A stretch of 64,000 bases of DNA from a virus (taxonomy: Duplodnaviria; Caudoviricetes), in IMG/VR virus record IMGVR_UViG_3300024346_000003, one strand, 5' to 3'. The notes beneath the pieces were generated by a model. It was not told where the DNA came from. It saw only the letters and a list, made by a program, of their open reading frames with translations, and searched no databases. The stretch's first letter is position 1; each line of letters begins with the position of its first letter. A program made the translations under genes and the position numbers. This document shows positions 29,135 through 56,140 of this stretch, piece after piece.

Positions 29135-29181
29135 ATAAGGTAGGTCGGAGTCTACTCTCCTATTACTTTCGTACTAGCCCC
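29135..29181 (-). ncRNA. structured small RNA family copy 1
   Basis: GGGGCTAG-TAC-GAAA-GTA-ATAGG-AGAGTAGACTCC-GACCTACC after own promoter. Confidence 0.65.
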
Positions 29182-29249
29182 TTTCTTTGTTATAACAAAT
29201 ATAGGAATAAAAAATGGTACTACCAAATTATAGTACCATTATTTTTAAT

Positions 29250-29483
29250 TTATTTTGATAAAGTTTTTAGCTCAGCTTTTATGCGTTTTGCCGTTTCACC
29301 TTTCCAAGTGTTAGCGTTACATAGGAAGTAAATAACGATACTTTTACCACTGTCCCAGCCGTACTTATCGTTAACCGATGTTAAGCTTTCCATAGCTTCT
29401 AAATAAGGTTTTGCGGCGTAATTAGGTTTAACCCAATCTTTTTTAATTTCACTTGCGATTTGATAAAGAGGTCTTGCGTTCAT
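29250..29483 (-). CDS. early hypothetical phage protein
   Basis: own promoter; AAKPYLEAM..YG.DSGKSIV.YFL.NANTWKGE motif. Confidence 0.75.
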   Translation of the reverse strand: MNARPLYQIASEIKKDWVKPNYAAKPYLEAMESLTSVNDKYGWDSGKSIVIYFLCNANTWKGETAKRIKAELKTLSK

Positions 29484-29546
29484 AATATACATTGTTTTAA
29501 ATTAGACAATACAAATATAAGTAATTTATTTCATATTTCCAAATAA

Positions 29547-29801
29547 TTACACAATTACTTTATTGTTATTTTCCCAAGCCCCCATATCTTTTGATTTATA
29601 GATTTTAAACCAATCGATATTTTGAATATCTTTTGAATCAACTAATTTACATGATAGATTAAATAATGAATGTGGCATTCTCCAATTAAGGGCATACCTA
29701 GATTTAATTGAATCTGATGCATTTTTAATCCATGTATGAAACAATTCTGTTCTTGTTTCAATATCATTAGCACCATTGAATATTTCCTCTGCGTTAAACA
29801 T
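29547..29801 (-). CDS. early hypothetical protein
   Basis: ATG after promoter module. Confidence 0.7.
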   Translation of the reverse strand: MFNAEEIFNGANDIETRTELFHTWIKNASDSIKSRYALNWRMPHSLFNLSCKLVDSKDIQNIDWFKIYKSKDMGAWENNNKVIV

Positions 29802-29900
29802 AATATATTGTTTTAAATTAGACAATACAAATATAAGAATACTATTTCAATTATCCTAATTATTTAACAAAAAAAAAGGGACTTTTTGTCCCCTTTAATT

Positions 29901-30176
29901 TTAGCTTTGTCCTTGTCGATAATTGTTACAATGGTTTCTATCAAATAGTTTATTTAATGTTTTGGTATGTTTTGTTTTTTTATGGTGTTTTTTATAGTTA
30001 AACCCATTTTTAGGTTTATCTTTTTTGATTTTAAAATTCTCAAAGATAATTGGTTTATCCTTTATTGAAATTTTGGTCACTATTGAATTTTCGATTTTTG
30101 TAACGTTTAGCATTTCAGTTGCTAACAATTGTGTAGTAAAAAACGACACTAACAAGAACATAATTAAATTTTTCAT
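29901..30176 (-). CDS. secreted/basic hypothetical protein
   Basis: signal-peptide-like N-terminus, Lys/His-rich tail. Confidence 0.65.
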   Translation of the reverse strand: MKNLIMFLLVSFFTTQLLATEMLNVTKIENSIVTKISIKDKPIIFENFKIKKDKPKNGFNYKKHHKKTKHTKTLNKLFDRNHCNNYRQGQS

Positions 30177-30239
30177 TTTTAAACGATTTAAATTAGACAT
30201 GAAACAAAGATAAGTAATTTATTTTAATCTACCAAACTT

Positions 30240-30410
30240 TTAGTAAGTTTTTTTTGATTTATTTTGACAATAAAAAGCATCAATAAATGTAGTTAAACCT
30301 ACAAGCATTCCAAATACTGAAATTGCACCAAGAATTGGTTCGTTAACATAAGCGCACAATGTGAACAAAGTTGTTGATAATACTAAAGTAATTAAAGAGA
30401 TAGTTTTCAT
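30240..30410 (-). CDS. 56-aa membrane protein (not in ORF track)
   Basis: hand translation MKTISLITLVLSTTLF..., two hydrophobic segments, own promoter. Confidence 0.65.
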   Translation of the reverse strand: MKTISLITLVLSTTLFTLCAYVNEPILGAISVFGMLVGLTTFIDAFYCQNKSKKTY

Positions 30411-30510
30411 AATGTATGTATTTTAATTAGACAATACAAATATAAGTAATTTATTTCAATCCACCAAATAAAATAGGATAATTATTTTATTTATTTTAAT
30501 CTTTTTTTTT

Positions 30511-30562
30511 ATAAGGTAGGTCGGAGTCTACTCTTCTGCTACCTTTTTGAAGTATCAGCCCC
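30511..30562 (-). ncRNA. structured small RNA family copy 2
   Basis: GGGGCTGA-TAC..GTA-GCAGA-AGAGTAGACTCC-GACCTACC after own promoter. Confidence 0.65.
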
Positions 30563-30630
30563 TTTTGTTAAAACAAAGATAAGGATAAGTTTTCACTTAT
30601 CCAAATCTTTTTTGATTTATTTTTGATTTT

Positions 30631-30900
30631 TTATTCAGCCACTAAAGTTAGTCTGTACTGCTCTAACTTTTCAGCGATGACATCAGCGCCACCCTTAACC
30701 CCGAAGTAACGTTTAACGTCTGTTATCTTCCAAAATCTGTGAGGTTTGATACCTTTGCTATATAACTTGCAATCTCTAATTGAAAGGATTAAGTTCCAAT
30801 ATGCTCTGCTAGTTTCAGCACCATTAACACTCAAACCATTTCCGAAGTCAGCTTCGAATTGCGTTCCTTTGATTTCCTTTAAAAATGTTTCCTTTTTCAT
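30631..30900 (-). CDS. early hypothetical protein
   Basis: ATG after promoter module. Confidence 0.7.
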   Translation of the reverse strand: MKKETFLKEIKGTQFEADFGNGLSVNGAETSRAYWNLILSIRDCKLYSKGIKPHRFWKITDVKRYFGVKGGADVIAEKLEQYRLTLVAE

Positions 30901-31050
30901 AATACGTTGTTTTAAATAGACAATACAAATATAAGTAATCTTTTTCAATATTCCAAATAAAATAGGATAATTATTTTATTTATTTTTTTTACTTAAAAAT
31001 TAGGTTATATCATTTATTATTCTTATCTTTGTTATGTACCAATAAGGTAA

Positions 31051-31096
31051 GGGGCTGAGCCGAGAGGAACAGAAGAGTAGACTCCGTCACGTCTAT
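31051..31096 (+). ncRNA. structured small RNA family copy 3
   Basis: GGGGCTGAG-CC-GAGA-GG-AACAGA-AGAGTAGACTCC-GTCACGTC after TATCTTTG promoter. Confidence 0.65.
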
Positions 31097-31183
31097 ACTT
31101 TTCCTTTGGATAAAAATGTTAAATAATTAGGATATCTTATTTATTATTATTATATTTGTAGTATCAATTTAAAATCAACAATT

Positions 31184-31402
31184 ATGAAAGTATTAAGAGA
31201 AGTTGGTGATGTTAAACTTAATGAAGGTCAACTAATGGCTAAAGGTTTAAATAATCTATACAACGAAAAAACAGGTCAATTATCATTATGGTTTGATAAT
31301 GAAGTTAAGGACTCCTTAATGAAATTACCCGATGATATATTTTTAGAAGTGGTTAGGGTTCATTTTGAACATGCCGAAGTTGGGCAATATAATCCAAACT
31401 AA
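31184..31402 (+). CDS. early hypothetical protein
   Basis: 72-aa ORF after TTAGGA..TATATTTG promoter. Confidence 0.7.
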   Translation: MKVLREVGDVKLNEGQLMAKGLNNLYNEKTGQLSLWFDNEVKDSLMKLPDDIFLEVVRVHFEHAEVGQYNPN

Positions 31403-31456
31403 TATAAAAGTAGATTAAATAAATAAGGGGGCTAAATTGCCCCCTTTCTTTCGTGC

Positions 31457-31476
31457 GTATACACGAATGTGTACAT
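31457..31476. repeat. palindromic (G/A)TATACAC-N4-GTGTA(C/T)AT element, copy 1 of 6
   Basis: also at 36692, 44355, 56542, 57067, 57529. Confidence 0.8.
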
Positions 31477-31488
31477 AGTGGGTGTATG

Positions 31489-31776
31489 CTATTGAGCACA
31501 CAACCCCCAAGGTTCAATCTTATCAATGTTTCGCCCATTCAAATTAAGTTCCTTGCAAATGAATTTAGCAAGTTTCTTATTTCCTGGTGTTCCTTCTGAA
31601 ATTTCACCCGTTTTAATTTGTTGGACAACGTATGACGGTTCCATACCCAATACTCTTGAACAAAACTTAACGTCTTGCCCTAAATAAAAAGACTTAGTTT
31701 TTGTCTTTGTTGATACAACCAACGACCAATTGTGGTCGAATCCGTAATTGCTAGTAATCTTAATTTCTGCGTTCAT
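31489..31776 (-). CDS. early hypothetical protein
   Basis: ATG after promoter module. Confidence 0.7.
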   Translation of the reverse strand: MNAEIKITSNYGFDHNWSLVVSTKTKTKSFYLGQDVKFCSRVLGMEPSYVVQQIKTGEISEGTPGNKKLAKFICKELNLNGRNIDKIEPWGLCAQ

Positions 31777-31850
31777 AATACTTTGTTTTAAAGTGACAAT
31801 ACAAATATAAGAAATAAAAACGACACTACCAAATGATAGTGCCATTATTT

Positions 31851-32081
31851 TTAAATTTCACAAATTCTTATTCCGAATTCCGTTTCAACATAAACTAGTT
31901 CTTCAATAGAACCACCTTTAACTTCATTAATAACGTAATCGAGTTCGTCTATTGGATAATCCCAAAGTGTTACATCTAAAATTTCTTCTGCAAATTCTTG
32001 TATGTCTTCAAGTTTTAGGTTTTTGGTTTCTTCATAACCTATTCGCTTTGCATACTCTTGTAATGAAATAGTTTCTAACAT
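31851..32081 (-). CDS. early hypothetical acidic protein
   Basis: own promoter. Confidence 0.7.
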   Translation of the reverse strand: MLETISLQEYAKRIGYEETKNLKLEDIQEFAEEILDVTLWDYPIDELDYVINEVKGGSIEELVYVETEFGIRICEI

Positions 32082-32339
32082 ACTTTCTAAGTTTTAAAGT
32101 GACAATACAAAGATACAAATATAAAATGGTATTTCCTAATTTAATTCCACTTTTTTTGTTTATGTTTATCTTTTCTTGTATAAGCTTTTTTTGACTTATG
32201 AACAGAATGACGCATTGCTTGTTGCAATTCGTGTTGAGTAATTTCGATAGTTTGAAGTTTCATAACTTATATTGTTTTAATTAGACAATACAAAGATAAG
32301 GATAACTTTTCAATTATCCAAATCTTTTGTTAATTATTT

Positions 32340-32657
32340 TTACATTGTATGAACATCATCTGTTATACTAAACGATATATCTCCATTTGCATCAACCTTG
32401 TTAGACACTAAACGAACAAGTGAGCTTTGCAAGTTACTTAATGAATTATACTTTTCGTATTTAATTCCTTTTGGTGTTCGTGCCCAAAGATTAGCACCCC
32501 ATGAAGAAATTTTGCAATCAGGTTTACCACTTCTATCTGCCAATACAACGTGAAACGTGTAAGGCTTATCAGATAAGTGAATGATAATTTGTTTTGCACC
32601 ATTATATAATTGGTCCAAAGTTACCTCTAATGATTTTAATGTGTTTAACGTTTTCAT
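32340..32657 (-). CDS. early hypothetical protein
   Basis: own promoter. Confidence 0.7.
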   Translation of the reverse strand: MKTLNTLKSLEVTLDQLYNGAKQIIIHLSDKPYTFHVVLADRSGKPDCKISSWGANLWARTPKGIKYEKYNSLSNLQSSLVRLVSNKVDANGDISFSITDDVHTM

Positions 32658-32745
32658 ATCTTATTGTTTTAAAGTGACAATACAAATATACAAAATAAAA
32701 ATGACACTACCAAATGATAGTGCCACTTTTTTTGTCAATCTAAAA

Positions 32746-33138
32746 CTAATCTAAGGTATTAAAGTAATCGTGTTTCATATTTGAAAGTGCTGAATATATG
32801 GTTTGGGAACCAATATCTTTACCTTCTTCATTTTTAATGGGTGTATTTCGTTTCAATATTTCCTTATATTCTTTATCATCGTAAATAAAACTTAAAAAGT
32901 CTATAATATGTCGTTTGCGATAATATTCAATTTGACTTGAAATGAATTTTTCAATAACTCTAGCAATTTGATAACTAGCTACTGTTGAAATAACACCAAT
33001 AATAATAACTAAACTTAACATAGCAAAAGTTGAGCTAAGTTCTATAAAAATTGGTGCGAACGATACTATTGTAATCGTTGTTGAAAATACAGCGATTATC
33101 GCTTTAAGTAATTTTGATTTTTCTACAAAGTTTAACAT
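32746..33138 (-). CDS. early membrane protein
   Basis: two N-terminal hydrophobic helices; own promoter. Confidence 0.7.
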   Translation of the reverse strand: MLNFVEKSKLLKAIIAVFSTTITIVSFAPIFIELSSTFAMLSLVIIIGVISTVASYQIARVIEKFISSQIEYYRKRHIIDFLSFIYDDKEYKEILKRNTPIKNEEGKDIGSQTIYSALSNMKHDYFNTLD

Positions 33139-33209
33139 AATTTTCTGTTTTAATTGGTTAAGACAAATATACAAATATAAAATGATATTTCCTAATTTAT
33201 TTTAAAGTA

Positions 33210-33287
33210 TTATTCATTTCCGTAGCCAGTTATTGATGCAATAATAAAAACCAACCCCATTACGATATAATCAAGTGCTTTTTTCAT
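33210..33287 (-). CDS. 25-aa single-TM micropeptide
   Basis: hand translation MKKALDYIVMGLVFIIASITGYGNE. Confidence 0.55.
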   Translation of the reverse strand: MKKALDYIVMGLVFIIASITGYGNE

Positions 33288-33289
33288 AA

Positions 33290-33373
33290 TTATCTTTTTA
33301 ATTCAATTATTAATGCTCCCACCAATACTGCAATAACTACTATTACTATTGCTGCAATAAAACCTACTACCAT
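33290..33373 (-). CDS. 27-aa single-TM micropeptide
   Basis: hand translation MVVGFIAAIVIVVIAVLVGALIIELKR. Confidence 0.55.
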   Translation of the reverse strand: MVVGFIAAIVIVVIAVLVGALIIELKR

Positions 33374-33376
33374 AAC

Positions 33377-33448
33377 TTAAGATTTTCTAATTTTAGTATC
33401 AAATGCTAAAACCACTGCGAATAAAAATATAACTGCTAATGCGCTCAT
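33377..33448 (-). CDS. 23-aa single-TM micropeptide
   Basis: hand translation MSALAVIFLFAVVLAFDTKIRKS; first ORF after promoter module. Confidence 0.6.
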   Translation of the reverse strand: MSALAVIFLFAVVLAFDTKIRKS

Positions 33449-33492
33449 AACTTTTTGTTTTAAAGTGACAATACAAATATAGGTAAAATATT

Positions 33493-33969
33493 CTACACTT
33501 CCAAATGTTTTACCAATATTTTTTTAATTTGTTTATTGTCACTTCTATCAAACGTATTATTCCATCTACCTTTGTATTTTGACTTAAGCATACTATCTAA
33601 AATAGTAAACGGCATATCAACAGAATGACAATGACTAAAAATTGGGTGCATTGTTAAATCATCGAAAAATCCTTTGCTATCAATATAAAACACTTTCTTT
33701 GATGTTTTAATTGTTACCATTACGTGTGACCAATCTGTTTTGAACAAATCAATTATAGCCTTATTTGCAATATGTCTGTTACTTTCGTAAACGCTATGTT
33801 CACGAACTAATAAAACCAATTCAGGTTTAAACCCTTTCTTAGTCAATACATTGTAAATGTGTTTTGCAACGAAACCACAACCACCACTATTAACATATCT
33901 AACTGAATTATCAATCTCATCGAATGATGATAATAAAGACTTTTTAATTTTAGCATTTAAGAATCCCAT
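33493..33969 (-). CDS. early hypothetical protein
   Basis: NSGGCG and SHVMV motifs, possibly papain-like Cys/His; own promoter. Confidence 0.7.
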   Translation of the reverse strand: MGFLNAKIKKSLLSSFDEIDNSVRYVNSGGCGFVAKHIYNVLTKKGFKPELVLLVREHSVYESNRHIANKAIIDLFKTDWSHVMVTIKTSKKVFYIDSKGFFDDLTMHPIFSHCHSVDMPFTILDSMLKSKYKGRWNNTFDRSDNKQIKKILVKHLEV

Positions 33970-34098
33970 AACTATTTGTTTTAAAGTGACAATACAAATA
34001 TAAGAATATAAAACGATATAACCTAATTTTTAATTAAAATAATTTATCTTATTTTATTAGGATATATCAAATATTTTCCTTACCTTTGTTTTGTCGAT

Positions 34099-34149
34099 GG
34101 GGCTGACACGAGAGTGGTAGTAGAGTAGACTCCTTGGGATACCTACTAC
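34099..34149 (+). ncRNA. structured small RNA family copy 4
   Basis: GGGGCTGA-CAC-GAGA-GTG-GTAGT-AGAGTAGACTCC after TACCTTTG promoter. Confidence 0.65.
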
Positions 34150-34218
34150 AAATTTGAGCCAACAAATAAAAAAGAGGGATTTCTCCCTCTTCTCATCAAC
34201 CAACTTAAAACAACAACT

Positions 34219-34476
34219 TTATACTGCGATAACCCAATCAGTAACCTCCCAATTCACGCTTGATGATACGCTATACCCTTTCTCTCTCAATCTTTGAGCA
34301 ACAATAGGCATATACATATACTCTTCAACACTCCAACCATAGCTTGGTGCACATTGTGCCGTTTCAAACTTGGTAGTTAAATACTCACCCCCTAATCGGC
34401 TTTCAATTCGAGCCATTAATTCATTAATGAATAACTCTTTTCTTTCTTGCGGTGTTAATGTTTTTGTTTCTGACAT
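34219..34476 (-). CDS. early hypothetical protein
   Basis: own promoter. Confidence 0.7.
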   Translation of the reverse strand: MSETKTLTPQERKELFINELMARIESRLGGEYLTTKFETAQCAPSYGWSVEEYMYMPIVAQRLREKGYSVSSSVNWEVTDWVIAV

Positions 34477-34684
34477 AATACTTTGTTTTAATTAGACAAT
34501 ACAAATATAAGAATATAAAACGATATAACCTAATTTTTATTTATCTTTTTCAAGTGAAACATTAAAAATAGTTCCAAATATGTTTTCAAATATTGATTTA
34601 ACATATAAGGTCTCTTTAATAGTTGTCTCATTATAGCACAACTCACCCTCATTATTGATATATAGATTTGAATTTTCCATTTTA

Positions 34685-35002
34685 TTAATTGTTATAAGTT
34701 ACCATTACTGAATCACTACAAAGAAAAACACTACAAGCAGTCAATTTCTCCATTGCCGTTTTAATAACGTATGTTCTAACTAGAAAATAAGATTTGTCTT
34801 GCTCAACTTGGAATTGTGTTCTACCAACGAAGTCAAATAAGCCCTCCTCAATGATTGTATCCATTTTCTTAATGGAATTCATTCCAAACAAATAATAAGC
34901 CATTAGGTTTGGGAAATCGTAGTTCTCTACTAATTGTCCGATTGAATACTGTCTTGAATAAAATTCAATTTCAGATTTTGGATAAGAATAATTTGCTTTC
35001 AT
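34685..35002 (-). CDS. early hypothetical protein
   Basis: own promoter. Confidence 0.7.
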   Translation of the reverse strand: MKANYSYPKSEIEFYSRQYSIGQLVENYDFPNLMAYYLFGMNSIKKMDTIIEEGLFDFVGRTQFQVEQDKSYFLVRTYVIKTAMEKLTACSVFLCSDSVMVTYNN

Positions 35003-35076
35003 AATGTATGTGTTTTAAATAGACAATACAAATATAAGTAATTTATTTCAATCTACCAAATATAAAACGATATTTT

Positions 35077-35301
35077 TTATATTGGTGAAATTTGATGTCC
35101 CTTTGCCCAATGACCATTATCAAGGTCAACGACAATTCTATCTGTATATTTCCAAAAAACTTGGTCTACAGGTTCCCCATACTTTTCACCAGCTTTGCAT
35201 AGTTCAATACCCGTCACTTTCGCTTTGAGTGGTGCAGCACCACCAAATCCACCTCGCCACATTACTTGGTCACCAACCTTAAGTGTAATTTTATTTGCCA
35301 T
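35077..35301 (-). CDS. early hypothetical protein (SH3-like beta barrel possible)
   Basis: LKVGDQVMWRGGFG motif; own promoter. Confidence 0.7.
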   Translation of the reverse strand: MANKITLKVGDQVMWRGGFGGAAPLKAKVTGIELCKAGEKYGEPVDQVFWKYTDRIVVDLDNGHWAKGHQISPI

Positions 35302-35386: not shown

Positions 35387-36154
35387 TTACTTTACTGAAA
35401 ATTCAGCTTTGTAAATTTTAACCAAGTGGTCATAAAACTCACCCTCATTTTCACTGAATTTCATGTGGGCAATTTTAAGTGCTTCTGACGTTTTTAAAAT
35501 TGCTTCTGACATTCTATTGTAATCTTTACAAAGTCGCATAATTTTGTATAAACTTCTGCGAACAAATGCCTTGTCAGGTATTGCATTTTTAACTAACATA
35601 ACCGCATCCAATAATTCCATGCTATCAGCCTCATTAACAAAAGTCATCTCACCACTAGTGAATACTTTACGGTTATTTGAACCAATAAAGATAAATAACA
35701 AGTCAGTCATAGTTAAACCTGTTTTTGTTTTTAATTCACTCATGATTATATATTCACGAATACCATTTGATTGGTATGAATCCATGTAGATTTTTGGTGA
35801 CCAACCCGCAGATGTATTATTTAATGTAGCAATGTACTTTGTTAAATTCAATTTTGAGTCAGATAACAACTCAACAATCAAAACATGAATAGGTAGTTCA
35901 AGTCGTTGTGCTGCTAAAAATCGATGTTGACCGTCAGCAATATAGTATTCAATTTTACCACTAATTGATTTAGTTTTAACTACTGTAATAACCACAGAAC
36001 CCGAACCAAACTTTTTAAAACTATCAACAAGTTTATTTACGTGTGATTCACGTGTGTTTCTGTTTGTACCTTTAAGTAGTTTGTACTTTGAAAAGTCAGT
36101 ACAATTTGAAATAAATTCAACAAATACCGATAATGGAAGATTTTTGTTACTCAT
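35387..36154 (-). CDS. ParB/Srx N-terminal-like (DGQHR) domain protein
   Basis: NRNTRESHVNKLVDSF...YIADGQHRFLAA..LELPI. Confidence 0.7.
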   Translation of the reverse strand: MSNKNLPLSVFVEFISNCTDFSKYKLLKGTNRNTRESHVNKLVDSFKKFGSGSVVITVVKTKSISGKIEYYIADGQHRFLAAQRLELPIHVLIVELLSDSKLNLTKYIATLNNTSAGWSPKIYMDSYQSNGIREYIIMSELKTKTGLTMTDLLFIFIGSNNRKVFTSGEMTFVNEADSMELLDAVMLVKNAIPDKAFVRRSLYKIMRLCKDYNRMSEAILKTSEALKIAHMKFSENEGEFYDHLVKIYKAEFSVK

Positions 36155-36306
36155 AACGTTTATGTTTTAATAATTAGACAATACAAATATAAGTAAACTA
36201 TTTCAATCTACCAAATAAAATAGGATAATTATTTATTTATTTTTTTGTATAAAAATTAGGATATATCATTTATTATCCTTACCTTTGTTATGTACCCGAT
36301 AGGTAT

Positions 36307-36355
36307 GGGCTGACACTCACAAGGTGGTAGTAGAGTAGACTCCGTCACGTCTATA
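36307..36355 (+). ncRNA. structured small RNA family copy 5
   Basis: GGGCTGA-CAC-TCACAAG-GTG-GTAGT-AGAGTAGACTCC-GTCACGTC. Confidence 0.65.
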
Positions 36356-36430: not shown

Positions 36431-36628
36431 TTATCTTTGTGACAATCTAATAAGTTGGCGTTGTATGAAATCAACATCTTTCTGACCATCATCAACCGAT
36501 TGTTCATCTTTTCGCTTATAAGCATTGAATAGTTTAGTCTGTGCTTTTTTAAGCATACTTAACCAACCTTCATACTCACTCATTCCTGAGTTTTGTAGTC
36601 CAACATTTTTATCTATTAATTTATCCAT
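36431..36628 (-). CDS. small hypothetical protein
   Basis: 65-aa ORF after ATATTTAT. Confidence 0.6.
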   Translation of the reverse strand: MDKLIDKNVGLQNSGMSEYEGWLSMLKKAQTKLFNAYKRKDEQSVDDGQKDVDFIQRQLIRLSQR

Positions 36629-39009: not shown

Positions 39010-39445
39010 TATGGGAGGTGGTTGTACATCCACCCCCCATTACTCCTTGTTCCATACCAAGTGCGCACCCGATACTTTATTTTCCGCTGAACAAAGCGTT
39101 TCCATTTAAGTCCCATAATCGGCAACCAAGAGCACTCATCTTGTTAGAGTTACGCTTCAAGAGGTCATCTCGTTAGAGTTACGCATTGAGACTATCTCAT
39201 CTCGTTAGAGTTACGCATAACACTTATCATCTTACCCCACACAGAATGTGGTTACGAATCAATCCATTTCCTTTACTTACGTAAAACAGTGATGGGTGTG
39301 TCAGAGGCTGTATCTCGTCTTGTTAGGTCTAAGAGGCTGTATCTCGAACCTGTTACATTATCGCTAGGCTGTTCTCATCTTGTTAATGATTGAAGCTACC
39401 GAGGACTTAAACTTCTACTATAGTATGTTAAAGAACGTTTTCCTT
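39010..39445 (-). ncRNA. candidate ~400-nt repeat-rich non-coding RNA
   Basis: own promoter (TATCTTTG at ~39454-39461), no ORF, elevated GC, ~7 TAAC(A/G)AGA(T/C)GA-like motifs, 3' GGTGG..CCACC hairpin. Confidence 0.55.
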
Positions 39446-39516
39446 TTGTTTAACAAAGATAAGTAATTTATTTTAAACTACCAAATCTTTTTGCAATTAT
39501 TTTTAATTTTTTTTTG

Positions 39517-39619: not shown

Positions 39620-39706
39620 ATTTGTTATTCAAAGAACTTTAACAAAGATAAGTAATTTATTTTAAACTACCAAATCTTTTTGCAATTATTTTTAATTTTT
39701 TTTTTG

Positions 39707-39781
39707 TAGTCAAAATAGGATTCGAACCTATGTAACGATGTCTCTAATAGGACATCTGCTTTGCCACTCGGCCACTTGACT
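39707..39781 (-). ncRNA. tRNA-like RNA with 6-bp stem/8-nt anticodon-like loop (copy B)
   Basis: AGTCAAG/TTTGACT-A acceptor, GATGTC-CTATTAGA-GACATC arm, ATAGG-TTCGAAT-CCTAT T arm. Confidence 0.7.
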
Positions 39782-39867
39782 ATTTGTTATTCAAAGAACT
39801 TTAACAAAGATAAGTATTTTATTTCAATCTACCAAATCTTTTTGCAATTATTTTTAATTTATTTTTT

Positions 39868-39926
39868 GTGAGCGTTATGGAATCGAACCATACCGTATGA
39901 CTCGCCATTGCTAACCCTAGACGCTC
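39868..39926 (-). pseudogene. degenerate minimal tRNA-like element
   Basis: T arm TATGG-TTCGATT-CCATA and GAGCGT/ACGCTC acceptor-like stem; D/anticodon arms not recognisable. Confidence 0.4.
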
Positions 39927-39949
39927 TAGGCGTGCACACCTATTTGTAG

Positions 39950-40070
39950 TAGTCAGGACAGGATTCGAACCTGTATCAACAGAATGTGTAACTACCTGTT
40001 ATATTAAGCATTGTAGATTCGAACCACTCACTCTCTAGGCCTGTTGACTTACCAATTTGTCCACCTGACT
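39950..40070 (-). ncRNA. tRNA-like RNA with long insert (copy C)
   Basis: same acceptor/T arms; TCAACAG..CTGTTGA stem encloses ~65 nt including a second GGTTCGAATC; 121 nt. Confidence 0.7.
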
Positions 40071-40156
40071 ATTTGTTATTCAAAGAACTTTAACAAAGAT
40101 AAGTAAACTTTTCCAATCTACCAAATATTTTTGTAATTATTTTTAATTTATTTTTG

Positions 40157-40228
40157 TGACCCGACCAAGATTCGAACTTGGAATAGAAGATTAGAAATCT
40201 TCTGTGATATCCCTTTCACCATCGGGCC
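40157..40228 (-). tRNA. tRNA-Arg (UCU)
   Basis: cloverleaf; anticodon arm GAAGA-TTTCTAA-TCTTC; T arm CCAAG-TTCGAAT-CTTGG. Confidence 0.9.
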
Positions 40229-40291
40229 AAATAAGGGTTGTTCGAACTCCCTAAAAACCTCACCTAAGTTTTTTCTATGGATATAGAAAAA

Positions 40292-40368
40292 TGGTGGTCC
40301 AACTTGGACTCGAACCAAGGACTTCAACATTATGAGTGTTGCACTCTAACCAACTGAGTTATAAGACC
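40292..40368 (-). tRNA. tRNA with CAU anticodon (elongator Met or Ile2)
   Basis: cloverleaf; CAACA-CTCATAA-TGTTG; encoded CCA end. Confidence 0.9.
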
Positions 40369-42570: not shown

Positions 42571-42719
42571 AATATATTGTTTTAAAGTTATACCACAAAG
42601 ATAAGGATAACTAATTACCCACACAACATACTATAGTTAGCATTTAAAATAATATAAAATAATATTAAATAAATTAGGATATGTCATTTATTATCCCTAC
42701 ATTTGTTTTGTCGATGGAC

Positions 42720-42769
42720 GGGCTGACACTCACAAGGTGGTAGTAGAGTAGACTCCGACCTACCTTATA
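42720..42769 (+). ncRNA. structured small RNA family copy 6
   Basis: GGGCTGA-CAC-TCACAAG-GTG-GTAGT-AGAGTAGACTCC-GACCTACC. Confidence 0.65.
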
Positions 42770-42888
42770 TTTTTTTTTAAATATATAAAAAAAATTTGCA
42801 AAGGTACAAAATAAAATCGACCTATGCAAATTTTTAATGAAAAAGTTATTAACAAAATGGTGGGGGTATTTTTCAACCCCCTTTCCAT

Positions 42889-43776
42889 TTATGCCATTAC
42901 CAAGCCTAACTTGTCAAGGGCAAACTGTAACCCTTGTTCGTTAGTTCGGTAGTTAGTACCCGTCATCATGCTTTCCTCACGTCCATTCTCTCTACGTGGT
43001 GCTGACTTTTCGTGTGTAGTCCATGAAGTAACCCCACTAAACAAACCAAACAAGTTGTCACCCTTCTGATTTGTCTCCTTCTTAATGTGACCATACAACG
43101 TCTCCATTGCATTCAAAGAACGTGTTGACAATTCACTTTCCGTCTTGATAGACATAGTCTTGTCAAACCCTAAAATGTGACGTACCATTTCGTCCGCCAA
43201 ACCTTTTGTCAAAGGTGTTGATTGGAAATGCTTATACGTTTCAGTCAATTTAAGACTCTCTAACAACGCCATTTCAATAAGGTAAGGTATTTCCTTAATA
43301 CGTTGTGTTAAACTCGCTGTATGGCGAAGTTTTGACTGTCCACTTTTGTAGAACTTAAAGAACTGATTAGAACATGACATAACCAATTCACCAATACCAA
43401 CTGATAAACCCGTAGAACCGTCATTACTGTCGATAATAGTAACATATCTTTTGATACGTTCGTCACCAACTTTTGACATTCCGTCAATTCCCAATTGAAG
43501 GAACACTTTACGTCCTCCATTCAAAGCACCCGCTTTTGTTACAGATAACTCACCAAACCCTTTAATACCGTTAAGTACTAATTCCACAATCTCATCGTTT
43601 TGAGACACTGTATACCCTTCTTTAACAGAATTGATACACTCACCCGTCTTGTCATTGAACAAGCCGAAAAATGGCGTTTCTTTGCCCGTAGCAGAAAGCA
43701 ATCTTTCTTTCTCAATACGGAAATCCAAGTTGTGCGCTACTAAGATTTCATTCACTTTGTTGTTTACTTCGCTCAT
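42889..43776 (-). CDS. DUF932/TIGR03299-like phage/plasmid protein
   Basis: YTVSQNDEI, GALNGGRKVFLQL, SNDGSTGL, CSNQF, RHT, LFGLFSGVTSWTTH. Confidence 0.75.
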   Translation of the reverse strand: MSEVNNKVNEILVAHNLDFRIEKERLLSATGKETPFFGLFNDKTGECINSVKEGYTVSQNDEIVELVLNGIKGFGELSVTKAGALNGGRKVFLQLGIDGMSKVGDERIKRYVTIIDSNDGSTGLSVGIGELVMSCSNQFFKFYKSGQSKLRHTASLTQRIKEIPYLIEMALLESLKLTETYKHFQSTPLTKGLADEMVRHILGFDKTMSIKTESELSTRSLNAMETLYGHIKKETNQKGDNLFGLFSGVTSWTTHEKSAPRRENGREESMMTGTNYRTNEQGLQFALDKLGLVMA

Positions 43777-43961
43777 AATAAAAAGTTTTAAATGATTAAC
43801 AGTACAAATATAATAATACTATTCCATATAAACAAATAAAAAACAATATATTTTTAATTTTTTTTTCATACCTTAATAATTGCGCACGCATGTATACAAA
43901 ATAAAAATGATATATCCTAATTTTTTTTGTTAAATTATCGCATATCGCAATACGCAATAAT

Positions 43962-44010
43962 GGCCTACCAAGGAGTCTACTCTCTCACATGCTTGCGACA
44001 TGCGACCCGT
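43962..44010 (-). ncRNA. structured small RNA family copy 7 (divergent)
   Basis: GGGTCG-CATG..CATG-TGAG-AGAGTAGACTCC-TTGG after own promoter. Confidence 0.6.
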
Positions 44011-44097
44011 CTTATTGACAATACAAATATAAAACAAAAAAACCACATATCCTAATAATACATGGTTTTTTTATTAACTATTTTATTCGTATCTTTG

Positions 44098-49869: not shown

Positions 49870-50094
49870 TTATATTTTAAATCCAAAACTCTCAATACCT
49901 AGTTTATAATCAATTACTTCATTTTCAATACAAAGTTCCTTTGCCCCTTTAAAGTTACCACTAGTCCCAACACGTTCTTGTTCTTCGGTATCTTGAAACA
50001 CAATATACTTTGATAACATTGGGTGATTTTGTTCTTGAATGAAACAACCTTTGTACCACCATTCTCCCACTTCAATTTGTTTTGGTTTTGCCAT
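49870..50094 (-). CDS. early hypothetical protein
   Basis: own promoter. Confidence 0.7.
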   Translation of the reverse strand: MAKPKQIEVGEWWYKGCFIQEQNHPMLSKYIVFQDTEEQERVGTSGNFKGAKELCIENEVIDYKLGIESFGFKI

Positions 50095-50156
50095 GATAAT
50101 AATGTTTTAAATAATTAGACAATACAAATATACATAAAAAAAAAGAAGCCACCAAA

Positions 50157-50378
50157 TTAATTGGTGACTTTTTTAAACATTTCTTCTAGAATTTTGAAGT
50201 CTTGGTCTCTATCTGATTCCGCCGTGCGTCCTTGATATAAATAACTGTCATACGCTATAGGATTATCAGTTTCAATTTCAATAGAATAACCTCCAACATT
50301 CCCCTTCTCAACATTAATCGCAGTACTTACTAAATTTTTGCACTCACGATTAAGTACTACATTTTTAAACCCATTCAT
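50157..50378 (-). CDS. early hypothetical protein
   Basis: ATG start chosen downstream of structured leader; ORF track extends to a GTG at 50477. Confidence 0.6.
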   Translation of the reverse strand: MNGFKNVVLNRECKNLVSTAINVEKGNVGGYSIEIETDNPIAYDSYLYQGRTAESDRDQDFKILEEMFKKVTN

Positions 50379-50394
50379 AATTAATTGATTTAAA

Positions 50395-50482
50395 TAAAAG
50401 GCTAGCACAATGGGTGGTCTTTTGTAGATTTCATGTGCTAGCCTCTCGGTGTCTAATCTAAAACATAAGCGTGCCACCCTAG
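50395..50482 (-). promoter_or_regulatory. structured leader / attenuator-like RNA
   Basis: 10-bp hairpin GGCTAGCACA/TGTGCTAGCC plus T tract; competing GGGTGG/CCACCC and TAGATT/AATCTA pairings. Confidence 0.5.
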
Positions 50483-50556
50483 TCTTTTTATTCGTGTAAG
50501 TATTCGCTTATTAATTAGACATTACAAAGATACAAATTGCTTTTCATTAAACCTAA

Positions 50557-50883
50557 TTATTTTTTACTTTTTTTTAAAATGGCCATGTATAACATAGTGA
50601 TATCTTCAATGGTCAATGAATCCTTCAACCTGTTCATTTTAAGTGAACATGCAACAACATTGTCATCCGTGTATCCCTTAGTATTGTCCAACCTGTCAAA
50701 CGTCAATTGATTGTCATCAAACTGAACCCTGTTTAAATTGGCACCACTGATATAACATTTTTTTGTTGATAACAATTGTCGGACCTTCTTAAGACTTAAG
50801 TCAAACTCAAGTTTTCTACTATCAGCTGATGTCTTAATTGAAATTAACTTCTTTGCCACTTCTAAATCTGTAACCCTTTCCAT
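50557..50883 (-). CDS. HNH-like nuclease-fold protein (degenerate)
   Basis: CYISG...LTFDRLDNTKGY..DNVVACS..MNRLK. Confidence 0.6.
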   Translation of the reverse strand: MERVTDLEVAKKLISIKTSADSRKLEFDLSLKKVRQLLSTKKCYISGANLNRVQFDDNQLTFDRLDNTKGYTDDNVVACSLKMNRLKDSLTIEDITMLYMAILKKSKK

Positions 50884-50895
50884 AATAATATTGTT

Positions 50896-51273
50896 TTATA
50901 TTTTGTAGATTCCATAATCTACGGTTACCAAAGTATCTACAGGTAACCCATCTGCATTCTCACCATTTAACATCCAATGTGGTGTGACCCGTGGATTGTA
51001 ACTAACTCGCTCCCCTGTTATATCAGCTTGTACAAAATTACTGCTCCATGCAATGGTTAGTTCTTTACAAAGAACCCATGCGCAAACTACCTTCTCCCCT
51101 CCATCAAATATCTTCTGAGCGGTCTTCTTTTGATTCTTAAGGATGCACTCATGCATCAATAACTGAACTTCAGATGGGAAATGGTATTCAATTTTACCAT
51201 CAGGATACTGAACCTTCCATTTCATGAAATTCTTACCCCTAGCTAAATTGAATCTTACTTTGAAACTTTTCAT
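50896..51273 (-). CDS. early hypothetical phage protein
   Basis: VRFNLARGKNFMKWKV, VSYNPR motifs. Confidence 0.7.
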   Translation of the reverse strand: MKSFKVRFNLARGKNFMKWKVQYPDGKIEYHFPSEVQLLMHECILKNQKKTAQKIFDGGEKVVCAWVLCKELTIAWSSNFVQADITGERVSYNPRVTPHWMLNGENADGLPVDTLVTVDYGIYKI

Positions 51274-51342
51274 AACTTATATGTTTTAATTAGACCTTAT
51301 AAAGATAAGAATAATAATCCACAACCCCAAATAAATCATGGA

Positions 51343-51624
51343 TTATTTTACAACGTATTTATCTAAATTAGTATTATAAATAAGTTTGAAATTATGACTT
51401 GTTGCAAACGAAGTTATTTCTTTTTTTATTTTCTTTAATTCAGAACATTTTTTAGCATATTCTTTTGCCAATTCATCACGATATTTTGGTGGTGCATCAA
51501 CCCAATATTCAGCTATTTTAAATTCGACAAAATATCTAGCATCACATATATCGTTACCCAAATAACCAAATGATTCTAATTTGACTTTAATTTTATCGTG
51601 TAATGTATTTAATGAATTTTCCAT
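51343..51624 (-). CDS. early hypothetical protein
   Basis: 93-aa ORF. Confidence 0.65.
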   Translation of the reverse strand: MENSLNTLHDKIKVKLESFGYLGNDICDARYFVEFKIAEYWVDAPPKYRDELAKEYAKKCSELKKIKKEITSFATSHNFKLIYNTNLDKYVVK

Positions 51625-51633
51625 AAGATTATT

Positions 51634-51990
51634 TTATACCAAAACAATTCCTAAATCATCAAGTGTAATACAGTCACTTTCAATTTGGTCGCCACTGTGC
51701 CATTTGTTTTGTGCATAATAGTATACACTATTATTATACACAACTAATCTTTCAACATCAATTTTCCAGCTTTCAATATCCTCATCATCATCGTTAAGGT
51801 ATTCAACACTACCGTCTAAATCAATATTAATACTATTAATGAATTTATTGTTGTTAACAAGTTCCATTGCGTTCTTAATGTTATCGACATCTGTTGGTGT
51901 TAAATTGATTTTTAACTTATCAATTTCCATAGAATCTGAATACTCCATTGAATGAAATGCGATACCTTTTTCAATTACTAAATTTTCCAT
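51634..51990 (-). CDS. early hypothetical protein
   Basis: 118-aa ORF. Confidence 0.65.
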   Translation of the reverse strand: MENLVIEKGIAFHSMEYSDSMEIDKLKINLTPTDVDNIKNAMELVNNNKFINSINIDLDGSVEYLNDDDEDIESWKIDVERLVVYNNSVYYYAQNKWHSGDQIESDCITLDDLGIVLV

Positions 51991-52008
51991 GATAATATAT
52001 TTTAATTG

Positions 52009-52203
52009 TTATTTATCTTTTGCTATTACAAAATAAGAATTTAATTCTTCTTCTTGGTCATCCTGTGTTCCATCTTCATTATGTAATACAGGAAATTTTA
52101 AATATAAAAACTCCCAACCATCCTCATAAGAATCAAACTCATGAGCATTGAAACAATGATTATCAAACTCATCAACAATAATAAATTTATTAGACTTTTT
52201 CAT
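52009..52203 (-). CDS. early hypothetical protein
   Basis: own promoter. Confidence 0.65.
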   Translation of the reverse strand: MKKSNKFIIVDEFDNHCFNAHEFDSYEDGWEFLYLKFPVLHNEDGTQDDQEEELNSYFVIAKDK

Positions 52204-52245
52204 AAGGATATGTTTTAATTATTAGACATTATAAAGATACAAAAA

Positions 52246-52788
52246 CTATTTCACTTTTCCAAATAAAGTTTCAACTAATTTTGATTTATCTGTATGGAAT
52301 AAGTTAATCGCATTCGCTATTGAAATAGCTACACTACTATCTTCCTCCACCTCATCCAAATGCCAATAGCAAACGTGTGTAGGTTCCTTGTCGTCACCAT
52401 TGTCAATGTAGATATTTACACTCTCATTATCGATGGCCAACTTCATTCTATTTAAATTGAGGCCAAACATAACAGACTCCAATTCATCGCCAACAATTTG
52501 AAACCCTTGCTCATTGATAGAAACTACACCAAAACTTTCAAGTGAATCACCAATGGTCAAGTTACCCTCATCATCAGATACCAATTCATATATGCATAAC
52601 TGAAATGAATTAACCCCATTGTAAAATTCGTCAAACCAAATATTAATATCGTATTCTATATTTGTTTCCTCATCTTTGAATGTATCCCAATGGTCACTTT
52701 CCATACCCGTAACATCGATAACATATTCTTTACCTAAAAAGGTAAATGATAATCGTTTGTTTCTAGTGTTTAAAATTGCTGTTTCCAT
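52246..52788 (-). CDS. early hypothetical acidic protein
   Basis: own promoter. Confidence 0.7.
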   Translation of the reverse strand: METAILNTRNKRLSFTFLGKEYVIDVTGMESDHWDTFKDEETNIEYDINIWFDEFYNGVNSFQLCIYELVSDDEGNLTIGDSLESFGVVSINEQGFQIVGDELESVMFGLNLNRMKLAIDNESVNIYIDNGDDKEPTHVCYWHLDEVEEDSSVAISIANAINLFHTDKSKLVETLFGKVK

Positions 52789-52874
52789 GATAATATTGTT
52801 TTAATTATTAGACAATACAAATATAATAAATAAAAGTGACACTACCAAATTATAATGTCACTTTTATTGTCTAA

Positions 52875-53612
52875 TTAAACAATAGCTTCTAATACGAAAC
52901 CACTAGTTAAAGCTTCTTTGTTTTTTTCAGCACCACCTTTGCCCGTAATGTTTTTGAATTTCAATCCAACAATTACATTCTTATCATCTAAGAAACGCAA
53001 GTCGTTATCATCACCATTGATAACCTTATAACCGTTATACGTTTCAGGTAACTTTGTAAATACCATTGCTACATTGTGACCCGCTTGTAATAAGCTTAAA
53101 GATATTTCATGATTTTCCTCGGAACGTGAAAATGTTAAATGATAATTCTTTGGTAACTCCTTTGCAAATCTAGTGTAATTCTTTGTGTAGTCATAGAATT
53201 GAACATTAGGAAACGTATCAAAGATTGTTTTACCATTGGACGTTTTTTGCTTCTCAAATGAAATATCACTTGTACCATTCAAACGTATTGCCAGGATAAA
53301 ATCAGTATCAGCAACTTTCTTTTCTAATTTGCCAATTTCAACTACCAACTTATCTAAAAATGCAATTCTATCTGAAAGATAAAATTCTGTTTTTTCAGTT
53401 CTACCATTCTTAACACTTTGGTAAATTCCACCAAAACCACTTTCGAATAAACATGCACTAGCACAACCTTTACTCGCCATGGGACAAATGTTTACCCCCT
53501 TAGAATTTTGTGTAAATGGTGACATGTACAAAATGAAAGTCTTGTAACCTTTCTTTTCACCTTTAATCGTTTTAGCATTGTTAAACGATAATAAACTTTT
53601 CTTGTAACTCAT
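52875..53612 (-). CDS. phage Gp88-like protein (CxxxxxxCxxxC)
   Basis: ICPMASKGCASACL, RLNGTSDI, FYDYTK, LTFSRSE, GDDNDLRFLD. Confidence 0.75.
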   Translation of the reverse strand: MSYKKSLLSFNNAKTIKGEKKGYKTFILYMSPFTQNSKGVNICPMASKGCASACLFESGFGGIYQSVKNGRTEKTEFYLSDRIAFLDKLVVEIGKLEKKVADTDFILAIRLNGTSDISFEKQKTSNGKTIFDTFPNVQFYDYTKNYTRFAKELPKNYHLTFSRSEENHEISLSLLQAGHNVAMVFTKLPETYNGYKVINGDDNDLRFLDDKNVIVGLKFKNITGKGGAEKNKEALTSGFVLEAIV

Positions 53613-53715
53613 AATAATATGTTTTAATTAATTAGACAATACAAATATAAAACAAAAAAGTGAGACTTCCAAATAAAATCTCACTTTTTTTAAAATTAAT
53701 TATATACTATACTAT

Positions 53716-54792
53716 TTAACCCTTTCCATTTCTTACATCATGCAAATAATCAATCTCATCATTTGTACTTTGAGCAAACAATTGCTTTAACATTTGCTCC
53801 TCCATACCAACTTGTCGTAAAATGTATTCCATGGTTTCACCGTCAACCTCAATCACTTTCAACTTACCAATAATATCCCTTACCAAATCATGTGTATGTT
53901 GTGTTTGACATAATACTGTTGGTGCATCAGCAAACGTATTTTTTCGCCAATCCATATCAGCCTCTTCATAGGTACCATCTTTTTTCCAAAAACCTACTAC
54001 CAAAATATCATCACATCCACCCATGGTAATATTTATTGATTCACAAAACTTACCATACTCTACCAAATCAAATTTAACAATATCGAATAAGTAATTCTCA
54101 TCGTCAATAACTTCACCTTCACCATAACCAATTACCTCAATTACATTTCCGTCCTTGTCGCAACTAATATGCCCCCATGAACTTTCAAATGACATGAATT
54201 CCTCTCTAATAATTGGAACCTTGCTCAAATCAATTTGTTTCTTTTTCACAATTGAAATAAACTTATTATCCAATACTATATAATTTGTCTTACCAAATGG
54301 AAAACCATTGTCATTTTCAGTAATAATAACCCCCAAATCAAGCAACTCATGAAATTCACTTTCATAAACATCACCAATGATTTCTGTATTATCAGCATTA
54401 CCAATTGTATAAACTTCTTCGGGAAAATCATATTCTATATTTCCAACTACAATTGGTTTAAGTTCTTCTTTTGGGAACAAATTATACCAATTATCAACTA
54501 TGGCCATATCATCATTCAACCCCAATGCAATTCTAACATCGTCAGAACAATTCTGAATTAAATCATGGTCATTAACACTCATGTTAATTGGTAGTGACTT
54601 ATCAACGTCCTCAGTGTATTTAGAAATTGACGTATTAATCTCTTTCGCACTACGAACCGCACATTCAATGCGTTTCTCGACCTCATCAATTTTAGCACCC
54701 AAATCATTCAATGCTATATCAACTTCATCATCCTTTTGGAATAAATCCCAACGCTTCATTGTTTCAACCAATTCATTAAATTGCTTTTTCAT
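53716..54792 (-). CDS. early hypothetical protein
   Basis: ATG after promoter module. Confidence 0.75.
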   Translation of the reverse strand: MKKQFNELVETMKRWDLFQKDDEVDIALNDLGAKIDEVEKRIECAVRSAKEINTSISKYTEDVDKSLPINMSVNDHDLIQNCSDDVRIALGLNDDMAIVDNWYNLFPKEELKPIVVGNIEYDFPEEVYTIGNADNTEIIGDVYESEFHELLDLGVIITENDNGFPFGKTNYIVLDNKFISIVKKKQIDLSKVPIIREEFMSFESSWGHISCDKDGNVIEVIGYGEGEVIDDENYLFDIVKFDLVEYGKFCESINITMGGCDDILVVGFWKKDGTYEEADMDWRKNTFADAPTVLCQTQHTHDLVRDIIGKLKVIEVDGETMEYILRQVGMEEQMLKQLFAQSTNDEIDYLHDVRNGKG

Positions 54793-54842
54793 AATATATG
54801 TTTTAATAATTAGACAATACAAATGTAAGTAAAAGAATTCAC

Positions 54843-55097
54843 TTATCCTAATTCTTCAACATTTTTATTTGTTGCGTCATAAGATACAATTCTGAAATCA
54901 CCAAATAAGATACCTTTATAGTATACAGCACTATTGTTAAATCTTATCAAATCAACCTCACCACCATCTACTACCAATCGCAAATGACCATATGTCCATT
55001 GGAAACTATCTATCGGGCCAACCACAATAAATGTGTCATCAATGTGATTCTCTTTTGTCTCAGGATTTAACCTATTGAAAAATTCTATCTGTAACAT
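54843..55097 (-). CDS. early hypothetical protein
   Basis: 84-aa ORF. Confidence 0.6.
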   Translation of the reverse strand: MLQIEFFNRLNPETKENHIDDTFIVVGPIDSFQWTYGHLRLVVDGGEVDLIRFNNSAVYYKGILFGDFRIVSYDATNKNVEELG

Positions 55098-55115
55098 AAT
55101 AATATAGTTTTATAT

Positions 55116-55343
55116 TTAATCATTAATATTTTCCCAACCTTCCAACTCAGTTAATTCCATACCAATTGGTCTTAACCCATAAGGCTCGGCATTCAAATAG
55201 TAATCAAAGGTATAACCCAAAGGCTCTAACTCATCTAACAATCTACCTAACTCATGGTAATCATCAGCATCCTCATCAAATGTTACCAATACGTCTTGAA
55301 CTTCACTAGGAATCAATTCGGGTGTTTCAAATAAATCTTTCAT
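55116..55343 (-). CDS. early hypothetical protein
   Basis: LGYTFDYYL..EPYGL motif; own promoter. Confidence 0.7.
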   Translation of the reverse strand: MKDLFETPELIPSEVQDVLVTFDEDADDYHELGRLLDELEPLGYTFDYYLNAEPYGLRPIGMELTELEGWENIND

Positions 55344-55402
55344 AATATATGTTTTAATAATTAGACAATACAAATATAAGAATATAAAATGATATATCCT
55401 AA

Positions 55403-55939
55403 TTAATTTTCAACAAATTTTAAAAGAAATTTATCACTAAACTTACCCCCATTATGTGCCTTGCAACATTTAGCACACGCATACGTTCTTGATACCTTTC
55501 TATGCTTCGGACTTTCATGCCCACAATTATCACATGTAAGACTATATTTCGCTTTAGGTAAATTAACAGTTTCACCATCATAACATCTATTACCATCACA
55601 ACCAATCTGCTTTGCAATAGATTTCCAATTATGACCATGACCCCTACCATTTTTAATTCCATAAACCTCAACAGAAAATGCATGTGCCATTTCATGTAAT
55701 ATAGTATTCTGTATTCTACTATCTATCTTATCCAAATTCTCACTACATAAAGGTAATGATAAACTAATCTTCTTTTGAATATAATGACAAGTACCAAATG
55801 CACGTTTCCTATTGTTAAACTCAAATCGATAACCCAAACCTTTAGCACTCACACTATGTGTACCACTATATGTAGTAAACGTAAATTCTTTTGACATCAA
55901 CTCATCAACCAATACTCTTACATCATTTAACGTTCCCAT
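55403..55939 (-). CDS. SprT-like metalloprotease
   Basis: TILHEMAHA, GHGHNWK, C-terminal CDNC/CAKC zinc ribbon. Confidence 0.85.
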   Translation of the reverse strand: MGTLNDVRVLVDELMSKEFTFTTYSGTHSVSAKGLGYRFEFNNRKRAFGTCHYIQKKISLSLPLCSENLDKIDSRIQNTILHEMAHAFSVEVYGIKNGRGHGHNWKSIAKQIGCDGNRCYDGETVNLPKAKYSLTCDNCGHESPKHRKVSRTYACAKCCKAHNGGKFSDKFLLKFVEN

Positions 55940-56091
55940 AACTTATATTGTTTTAATTAGACATTACAAATATAATAATACTATTCCATATATCCTAATT
56001 TTTATACAAAAAAAATTTAAAATTATTTTACAAAATAATTAGGTTATCTCATTTATTATCCCTACCTTTGTTATGTACCCGATAGGGATAC

Positions 56092-56140
56092 GGGCTGATA
56101 CTCAAAAGGTATCTGGAGCGTAGACTCCAACCTACCTATA
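56092..56140 (+). ncRNA. structured small RNA family copy 8
   Basis: GGGCTGA-TAC-TCAAAAG-GTA-TCTGGAGCGTAGACTCC-AACCTACC after TACCTTTG promoter. Confidence 0.6.

Follow-up and report, generated by a model that had tools for sequence, protein, structure and literature searches.

Why should a phage carry, dispersed among its early genes, eight copies of a short element that each stand behind a promoter of their own and hold no open reading frame (ORF)? The question is raised by the 64,000-nucleotide stretch of virus record IMGVR_UViG_3300024346_000003 (Duplodnaviria; Caudoviricetes), hereafter the window, in which an earlier note, made from the letters alone, had described an unrecognised structured small RNA family between positions 29135 and 56140. 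The present analysis supports an early phage RNA family of this kind, with a constant core and shuffled variable modules, and its conserved part was found to resemble loop E and helix IV of bacterial 5S ribosomal RNA (rRNA), a likeness which the earlier note had overlooked. The reading that we favour, with a probability of about 0.45, is that of an early, high-dosage mimic of this 5S arm, which would serve as decoy for a host factor binding or cutting loop E/helix IV.

The nine-base core GTAGACTCC is found exactly 8 times in the window, against 0.14 ± 0.35 times in shuffles, and is absent elsewhere in it. A covariance model, the construction of which had been proposed as a check, recovered precisely the same eight elements with scores of 37.7-57.1 bits, the next-best match reaching 6.2 bits. 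By both the core count and the model scan, the positions first given for the eight copies are borne out (Table 1), and the hairpin pairs and tail classes agree with those described before. GNRA loops are present as reported, although in four copies and not in three, copy 7 carrying GCAA. The statement that no ORF follows the copies holds for the elements themselves, but 70-200 bases beyond copies 1, 2, 3 and 7 lie genes of the same direction, each with its own promoter.

Homologues were gathered by pattern scans of viral and metagenome contigs, which gave 382 distinct copies, and about 390 after later scans. The carriers belong to at least four unrelated phage groups, of 60-360 kilobases (kb), of aquatic Bacteroidota. 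In 49 phage records, selected because each held an element, the model search found 1-2 copies in phages of ~60-67 kb, 1-2 in immuto-like phages of ~160 kb and up to 10 in larger ones. Two carriers are in culture, Flavobacterium phage immuto_2-6A with one copy and Tenacibaculum phage Larrie with four (two of them tail to tail), and a complete 288-kb phage with about nine copies has 54 ORFs in common with the window at a median identity of 57%. Among 401 Flavobacteriales genomes, the element was seen on a single phage-like contig and nowhere else; the 642-kb phage LR756502 does not carry it, and a loose pattern scan of genome contigs gave mostly chance matches, the true ones (L031, L113) being short AT-rich phage-like contigs. 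The element is a phage trait that has spread among unrelated lineages, all infecting a single host phylum; because of this distribution, its partner is probably a host molecule. No partner gene is shared across the carrier phage groups, whose common genes are limited to those of nucleotide metabolism (ribonucleotide-reductase-like ones and thymidylate synthase). Elements paired tail to tail, with a promoter for each element, were also seen in L169, L223, L303, L334, L374 and L438, L169 holding four such pairs within 6 kb.

As had been claimed, each of the eight copies has its own promoter: all start 4-5 bases past a full -33/-7 element of the Bacteroidota type (TAnnTTTG). The segment from 28 to 57 kb is an early-gene region in which nearly every small gene possesses its own -33/-7 promoter, an A-rich leader and an ATG; in contrast to the ~60 surrounding gene promoters of the same type, those of the eight elements are followed by no ATG leader. 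The convergent promoters reported opposite copies 1 and 6 are full ones, whereas a third, facing copy 8 (56181, minus strand), had been overlooked. A convergent promoter stands opposite 37 of 250 homologues, with a conserved spacing near 42 bases in 23 of these, and in a set of 36 copies picked without regard to promoters, 35 have a same-sense upstream promoter 33-50 bases away. In the ~60-kb phages, including L318, L329, L343 and L365, no TAnnTTTG promoters were seen near the element, and repeated ACG..GATAAT and TGCTATAC motifs are found instead.

Covariation of the hairpin was strong: 61 cells were changed on both sides, against 0 of 500 shuffles, slid controls being far lower, and the three basal stem pairs comprise 176 G-U against 20 C-A. 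Because of this covariation and of the abundance of G-U pairs, the element is, as far as its sequence tells, one that acts as RNA. A small ORF is not supported, the hairpin lengths (12-25) having no triplet spacing and an ATG leader being absent, and an ORF lies within 60 bases of just 7 of the 351 homologues. The Rfam scan of the window returned transfer RNAs (tRNAs) only and two 101-base test stretches gave nothing at E<=10, in agreement with the view that no known family is concerned; no curated model of ribozymes, riboswitches or antitoxins was matched. RNAalifold gave only an invariant three-pair GAG/CUC hairpin, without covariation and broken in immuto-type copies. Likenesses to the sarcin-ricin loop, transfer-messenger RNA ends, signal recognition particle RNA, Y RNA, kink-turns, hepatitis delta virus-like ribozymes and tRNA anticodon arms did not hold when compared with the alignment.

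Four parts stay constant: A-N-G-G; a stem, mostly with CUG/YRG at its base; N-AGAGUAG-AC; and a YRC placed exactly ten bases past GUA. Hairpins and tails are freely shuffled among copies. In immuto-like phages, AGAGUAGAC is followed by GGG, CGG or UGG where others have UCC, and the 60-kb class carries UAG, AAG or UGG in place of the 5' GGG. Because these tails and 5' ends differ, the GGG:ACUCC helix proposed earlier is not general: the window copies would permit it on paper, but homologues do not keep it. An H-type pseudoknot aptamer with two covarying stems was not found either, GGG:CUC being invariant or broken and GUAG:CUAC changing on one side only; likewise, YRC can pair back with GUA(G), with one-sided changes only. 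A second hairpin follows copies in L014, L178, L238, L221, L380 and L386, and in L014 it precedes a lone repeat of the 3' module. Another motif resembling a non-coding RNA (ncRNA), common to ~60-kb phages (L285:4865 and L351:7704, both on the minus strand), consists of a hairpin and then a terminal AGAGUAAA.

In Bacteroidota 5S rRNA, the order of the segments is GAUGGUA, CUG-hairpin-YGG, GAGAGUA and G. A profile trained on phage copies only was run on both strands of 400 kb of host DNA, and the top six matches, as well as 8 of the top 9, were 5S rRNA, with scores equal to those of the window copies. When the model boundary was swept, 5S reached a median of 22.8 bits against 16.1 for the best background, its signal being highest with the model ending at the equivalent of G105 and declining beyond. 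In 41 whole Flavobacteriaceae genomes, 35 of the 43 matches to the phage-derived pattern lay in 5S genes, the other 8 being scattered; lengthening of the pattern by AC left three chance matches. From those counts, the expectation of a chance match is about three in a million per 115-base RNA, and about three in ten thousand for any of ~10 kb of structural RNA.

The 3' strand of loop E, G98-G105 (GAGAGUAG), is present as N-AGAGUAG in the large majority of copies, and the adjacent hairpin starting CUG/YGG is of helix IV type by its covariation and stem ends, CUG/CGG being the most frequent stem base both of Bacteroidota 5S and of two phage classes. From the symmetric 7-base 5' strand, GAUGGUA, A73, G75 and G76 are kept in four classes, with 77-78 altered or one base missing; the A at position 73 is conserved at 97%, 97%, 100% and 80% across four architectures, its 3' neighbour being variable. 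The equivalent of G100 is changed to A or C in 14 of 14 GGCA-type copies, which have the full 7-base 5' strand, and in no other tabulated class; because this 5'-strand change always accompanies that of the G100 equivalent, the two strands seem to interact. Copy 4 folds as a full rod with a 7x7 loop. With the loop E-helix IV-loop D arm of 5S rRNA (RF00001), which is the bL25/Ctc site, the element shares A-N-G-G, a CUG/YGG-based hairpin of 11-25 bases and R-AGAGUAG; it differs in being one arm without helices I-III and usually without helix V, in its altered bases 77-78 and in its extra 3' module. RF00001 matched none of 22 phage records and the full ~115-base three-domain fold was not found in them. 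Judged by its letters, the element resembles a working 5S arm and not a 5S gene. Scans of viral contigs for closer 5S intermediates gave only host flanks and chance matches, and a resemblance over 11 bases between the tail and 23S rRNA was rejected, being expected about once by chance. At the ends of several viral contigs of 23-47 kb (L770-L782) lies the 3' half of a 5S gene of Bacteroidales type, which suggests prophages integrating at 5S rRNA; such integration is a possible route for the capture of this arm by phages.

In the decoy reading, host RNA polymerase would make RNAs of ~55-70 bases at high dose just after DNA entry, as the promoters suggest. Each RNA would fold the hairpin, equivalent by covariation to 5S helix IV/loop D, and the segments bordering it (5' A-N-G-G, 3' N-AGAGUAG) would copy both strands of bacterial loop E, keeping the partners A73-U103, G75-A101 and G76-G100, which presumably form non-canonical pairs. 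The RNA would act in trans on a host factor recognising the 5S arm, and additional copies would increase the dose and diversify the mimic, whereas the 3' module AC-N7-YRC can fold onto GUAG, its probable role being to determine RNA stability, the position of the 3' end or a switch between on and off conformations. bL25/Ctc is the only established binder of the loop E arm, and two-domain bL25 is encoded by the hosts and not by the phages. Specific binding of L25 to loop E is established, as is slower growth when L25 is lost (PMC4408793; PMC10931766); titration of bL25/Ctc would starve new 50S subunits of it. The target could alternatively be a defence nuclease or sensor aimed at 5S rRNA, which the diversity of copies within a genome would suit; Cas13 is a precedent for cutting of 5S (10.1101/2022.07.05.498905). 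A widespread phage RNA family would then mimic an rRNA domain in trans, and would thereby deprive ribosome assembly of bL25 or else serve as decoy for a Bacteroidota defence that watches or cuts 5S, and the probability given above is split roughly evenly between bL25 and an unnamed 5S-directed defence protein. The decoy or sponge suggested in the earlier note agrees with this favoured, if still tentative, reading.

Several observations weigh against the 5S-arm decoy. The model boundary was chosen post hoc, after the likeness had been noticed, and the chance corrected for this is, by our own estimate, roughly 0.01-0.05, which would still be significant. Positions 77-78 are unlike 5S in most copies; the closing helix V, present in copy 4, is usually absent (16% of the best class have three pairs, other classes 0-8%); the ~60-kb phage class has no conserved 5' strand, so no whole loop E; and the 5' hairpin P0 can occupy that strand. 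Hairpin interiors are mostly no nearer to 5S than shuffles, and the sharing of loop k-mers with 5S is weak (0.38 against 0.24 ± 0.05, with terminators at 0.27). Beyond the 5S match, nothing in 5S corresponds to the invariant AC or to the conserved YRC ten bases further along, and pairing of this YRC with GUAG would be at the expense of loop E. Individual copies fold no better than shuffles, which fits a motif rich in non-canonical pairs, yet is not evidence for one. The gain from bL25 removal within one latent period is also unclear.

Among the rival explanations, two are considered doubtful to the same degree. The 5S-like half could be a stabilising scaffold, perhaps protected by bL25, for a 3' module (UAGAC-N7-YRC) that binds another host factor, in agreement with the lone duplication of this module in some copies (L014, L178, L238), the constant YRC spacing in all classes and the free exchange of tails among hairpins; however, the loop of the module is wholly changed in immuto-like phages (UCC-RNCC to GGG-CCGG) and the module neither resembles host rRNA operons nor is complementary to them to a significant extent. 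The 5S likeness could also reflect reuse of a common non-canonical motif in a compact two-hairpin or pseudoknot sponge for an unrelated defence protein or for a small molecule such as an immune nucleotide signal. Changes in the core:tail pairs are one-sided only, a C at the G102 position retains the tail C, the GGG:CUCC pseudoknot stem is not conserved and the 5S match far exceeds background, all of which argue against such a sponge, whereas the small invariant purine-rich junction between two helices, the high copy number with early timing and the 79.5% pairing of five core:tail pairs are compatible with it. A cis-acting transcription element, such as a promoter-proximal pause, terminator, insulator or polymerase sink amid crowded early promoters, is less likely: the location right behind the promoter in the unbiased set, the weak hairpin with an A/T tract, the convergent promoters with their ~42-base spacing and some tail-to-tail pairs would suit it, but half of the window copies face oncoming genes, the downstream genes have their own promoters, termination does not need invariant unpaired bases and small phages carry the element in single copy.

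The remaining readings are improbable. A guide or antisense RNA with its target picked by the 8-base tail, already considered in the earlier note, would account for a variable tail beside a constant core, for combinatorial shuffling and for the complementarity of the commonest tails to 5S bases 102-109; against this, the tail is limited to YRY and is not free, no effector or partner gene is shared, no complementary target was found, the best duplexes with rRNA operons being unremarkable and different for each copy, and immuto-type tails mismatch 5S. Slightly less credible is a DNA operator or recombination site based on the near-palindrome GAGT-AG-ACTC, as dispersed repeats in a modular early region, with a 12-base core permitting module shuffling, might suggest: copy 8 and the immuto class do not preserve the palindrome, orientation tracks the promoter, and the G-U excess over C-A in the basal stem is that of an RNA. 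The lowest rank goes to the small self-cleaving ribozyme of the earlier note, for which the invariant junction bases adjoining variable helices could be invoked; the 101-base stretches gave no Rfam ribozyme match at E<=10, and neither a conserved second stem for an active site nor a downstream RNA to release is present.

Phage RNA decoys are already known: the pseudo-ToxI repeats of phiTE and the RNA anti-CRISPRs (Racr, rAcrVIA1) copy antitoxin or CRISPR RNAs. Like pseudo-ToxI and Racr, the element would be a short phage-encoded RNA that copies a host RNA and acts by dose; unlike them, it would copy rRNA and is dispersed, with one promoter per copy. Racr RNA anti-CRISPRs are named in PMC13687109. 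No host array or CRISPR repeat with the unit of the element, of the type III antitoxin or Racr kind, was found in the 401 Flavobacteriales genomes (the one phage-like contig excepted) or in the 41 family genomes. Against PARIS, Septu and retron Eco7, phages amplify tRNAs, and the extra tRNA out-doses tRNA nucleases (PMC13728456). Copies of a translation RNA are multiplied there too to outlast a host nuclease, but these are whole functional tRNAs and not a fragment mimic. We know of no 5S-specific nuclease. Ribosomal-protein leaders and the rplY operator (PMC4408793) likewise bind a ribosomal protein by rRNA mimicry, but are host, cis-acting messenger RNA elements, and the rplY hairpin is not obviously loop E-like. 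In the upstream regions of Bacteroidota rplY, the motif was not found. The promoter-stem-loop cassettes (PeSL) of T4-like phages and the put RNAs of HK022 also combine a repeated early promoter with hairpins, but lead into genes, whereas the element has no ORF. Neither the linked effector nor the free guide segment of RNA-guided systems (TIGR, bridge RNA etc.) was found, the tail being constrained.

To our knowledge, no phage RNA mimicking rRNA is known, and among phage RNA decoys one that copies rRNA would be new. The literature searched gave no description of the motif or of such an RNA, and the Larrie paper does not mention it; a catalogue of 10,006 viral RNA candidates (PMC10690425) lies outside this comparison and may hold it unnamed. 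That the element recurs in unrelated phage groups whose hosts belong to a single phylum, in as many as ten promoted copies, points to selection that is both strong and common. If the decoy reading is true, phages tune host ribosomes by RNA, or an undescribed 5S-linked immune step exists in Bacteroidota and could be retrieved with this RNA. The cultured phages immuto_2-6A and Larrie should allow the function of the element to be tested directly.

Table 1. Copies of the element and associated promoters in the window.
Feature	Position	Strand	Remarks
Copy 1	29135..29191	-	Given from predicted start to end of tail; GAAA-loop hairpin; tail GACCUACC
Copy 2	30511..30569	-	Tail GACCUACC
Copy 3	31036..31097	+	5' hairpin P0; P2 with GAGA loop; tail GUCACGUC
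Copy 4	34093..34145	+	5S-like rod fold: GUC/GAC helix, 7x7 internal loop, CUG/UAG hairpin
Copy 5	36292..36355	+	Loop UCACAAG; tail GUCACGUC
Copy 6	42710..42768	+	Hairpin identical to copy 5; tail GACCUACC
Copy 7	43960..44019	-	Stem base UCG/UGA; GCAA loop; UUGG-class tail
Copy 8	56075..56140	+	Variant core AGCGUAG; tail AACCUACC
-7 promoter element, copy 1	29196..29203	-	-33 element upstream of it
-7 promoter element, copy 2	30574..30581	-	Promoter scan
-7 promoter element, copy 3	31024..31031	+	Promoter scan
-7 promoter element, copy 4	34081..34088	+	Promoter scan
-7 promoter element, copy 5	36280..36287	+	Promoter scan
-7 promoter element, copy 6	42698..42705	+	Promoter scan
-7 promoter element, copy 7	44024..44031	-	Promoter scan
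-7 promoter element, copy 8	56063..56070	+	Promoter scan
Convergent promoter facing copy 1	29097..29104	+	No ORF; would yield antisense transcript
Convergent promoter facing copy 6	42799..42806	-	No ORF
Convergent promoter facing copy 8	56174..56181	-	No ORF

Other features were noticed in the window. A promoter without ORF at 36432 (plus strand) lies downstream of copy 5 and antisense to a small gene. At 39300-39461 (minus strand), an ORF-less promoter beside the tRNA cluster is associated with a short direct repeat and may belong to a further ncRNA. The tRNA genes at 39706-40368 and 61909-62021 (both minus strand) have a separate promoter each; in one tRNA the anticodon loop has 8 bases, and two long tRNA-like matches given by Rfam are not called by ARAGORN. 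At 50380-50532 (minus strand), a promoter is followed by a structured leader of ~150 bases ahead of a 73-residue ORF, and the strong terminator-like hairpin and alternative GGGUGG/CCACCC pairing of this leader are attenuator-like. The genes at 8541-11060, 13153-14553, 23211-24719, 35387-36154, 42889-43776 and 52875-53612 correspond to a ClpB-like chaperone, a leucine-rich-repeat protein, a NAMPT-like enzyme, a ParB-like protein, DUF932 and GP88; a DUF932 gene is close to the element in immuto too.

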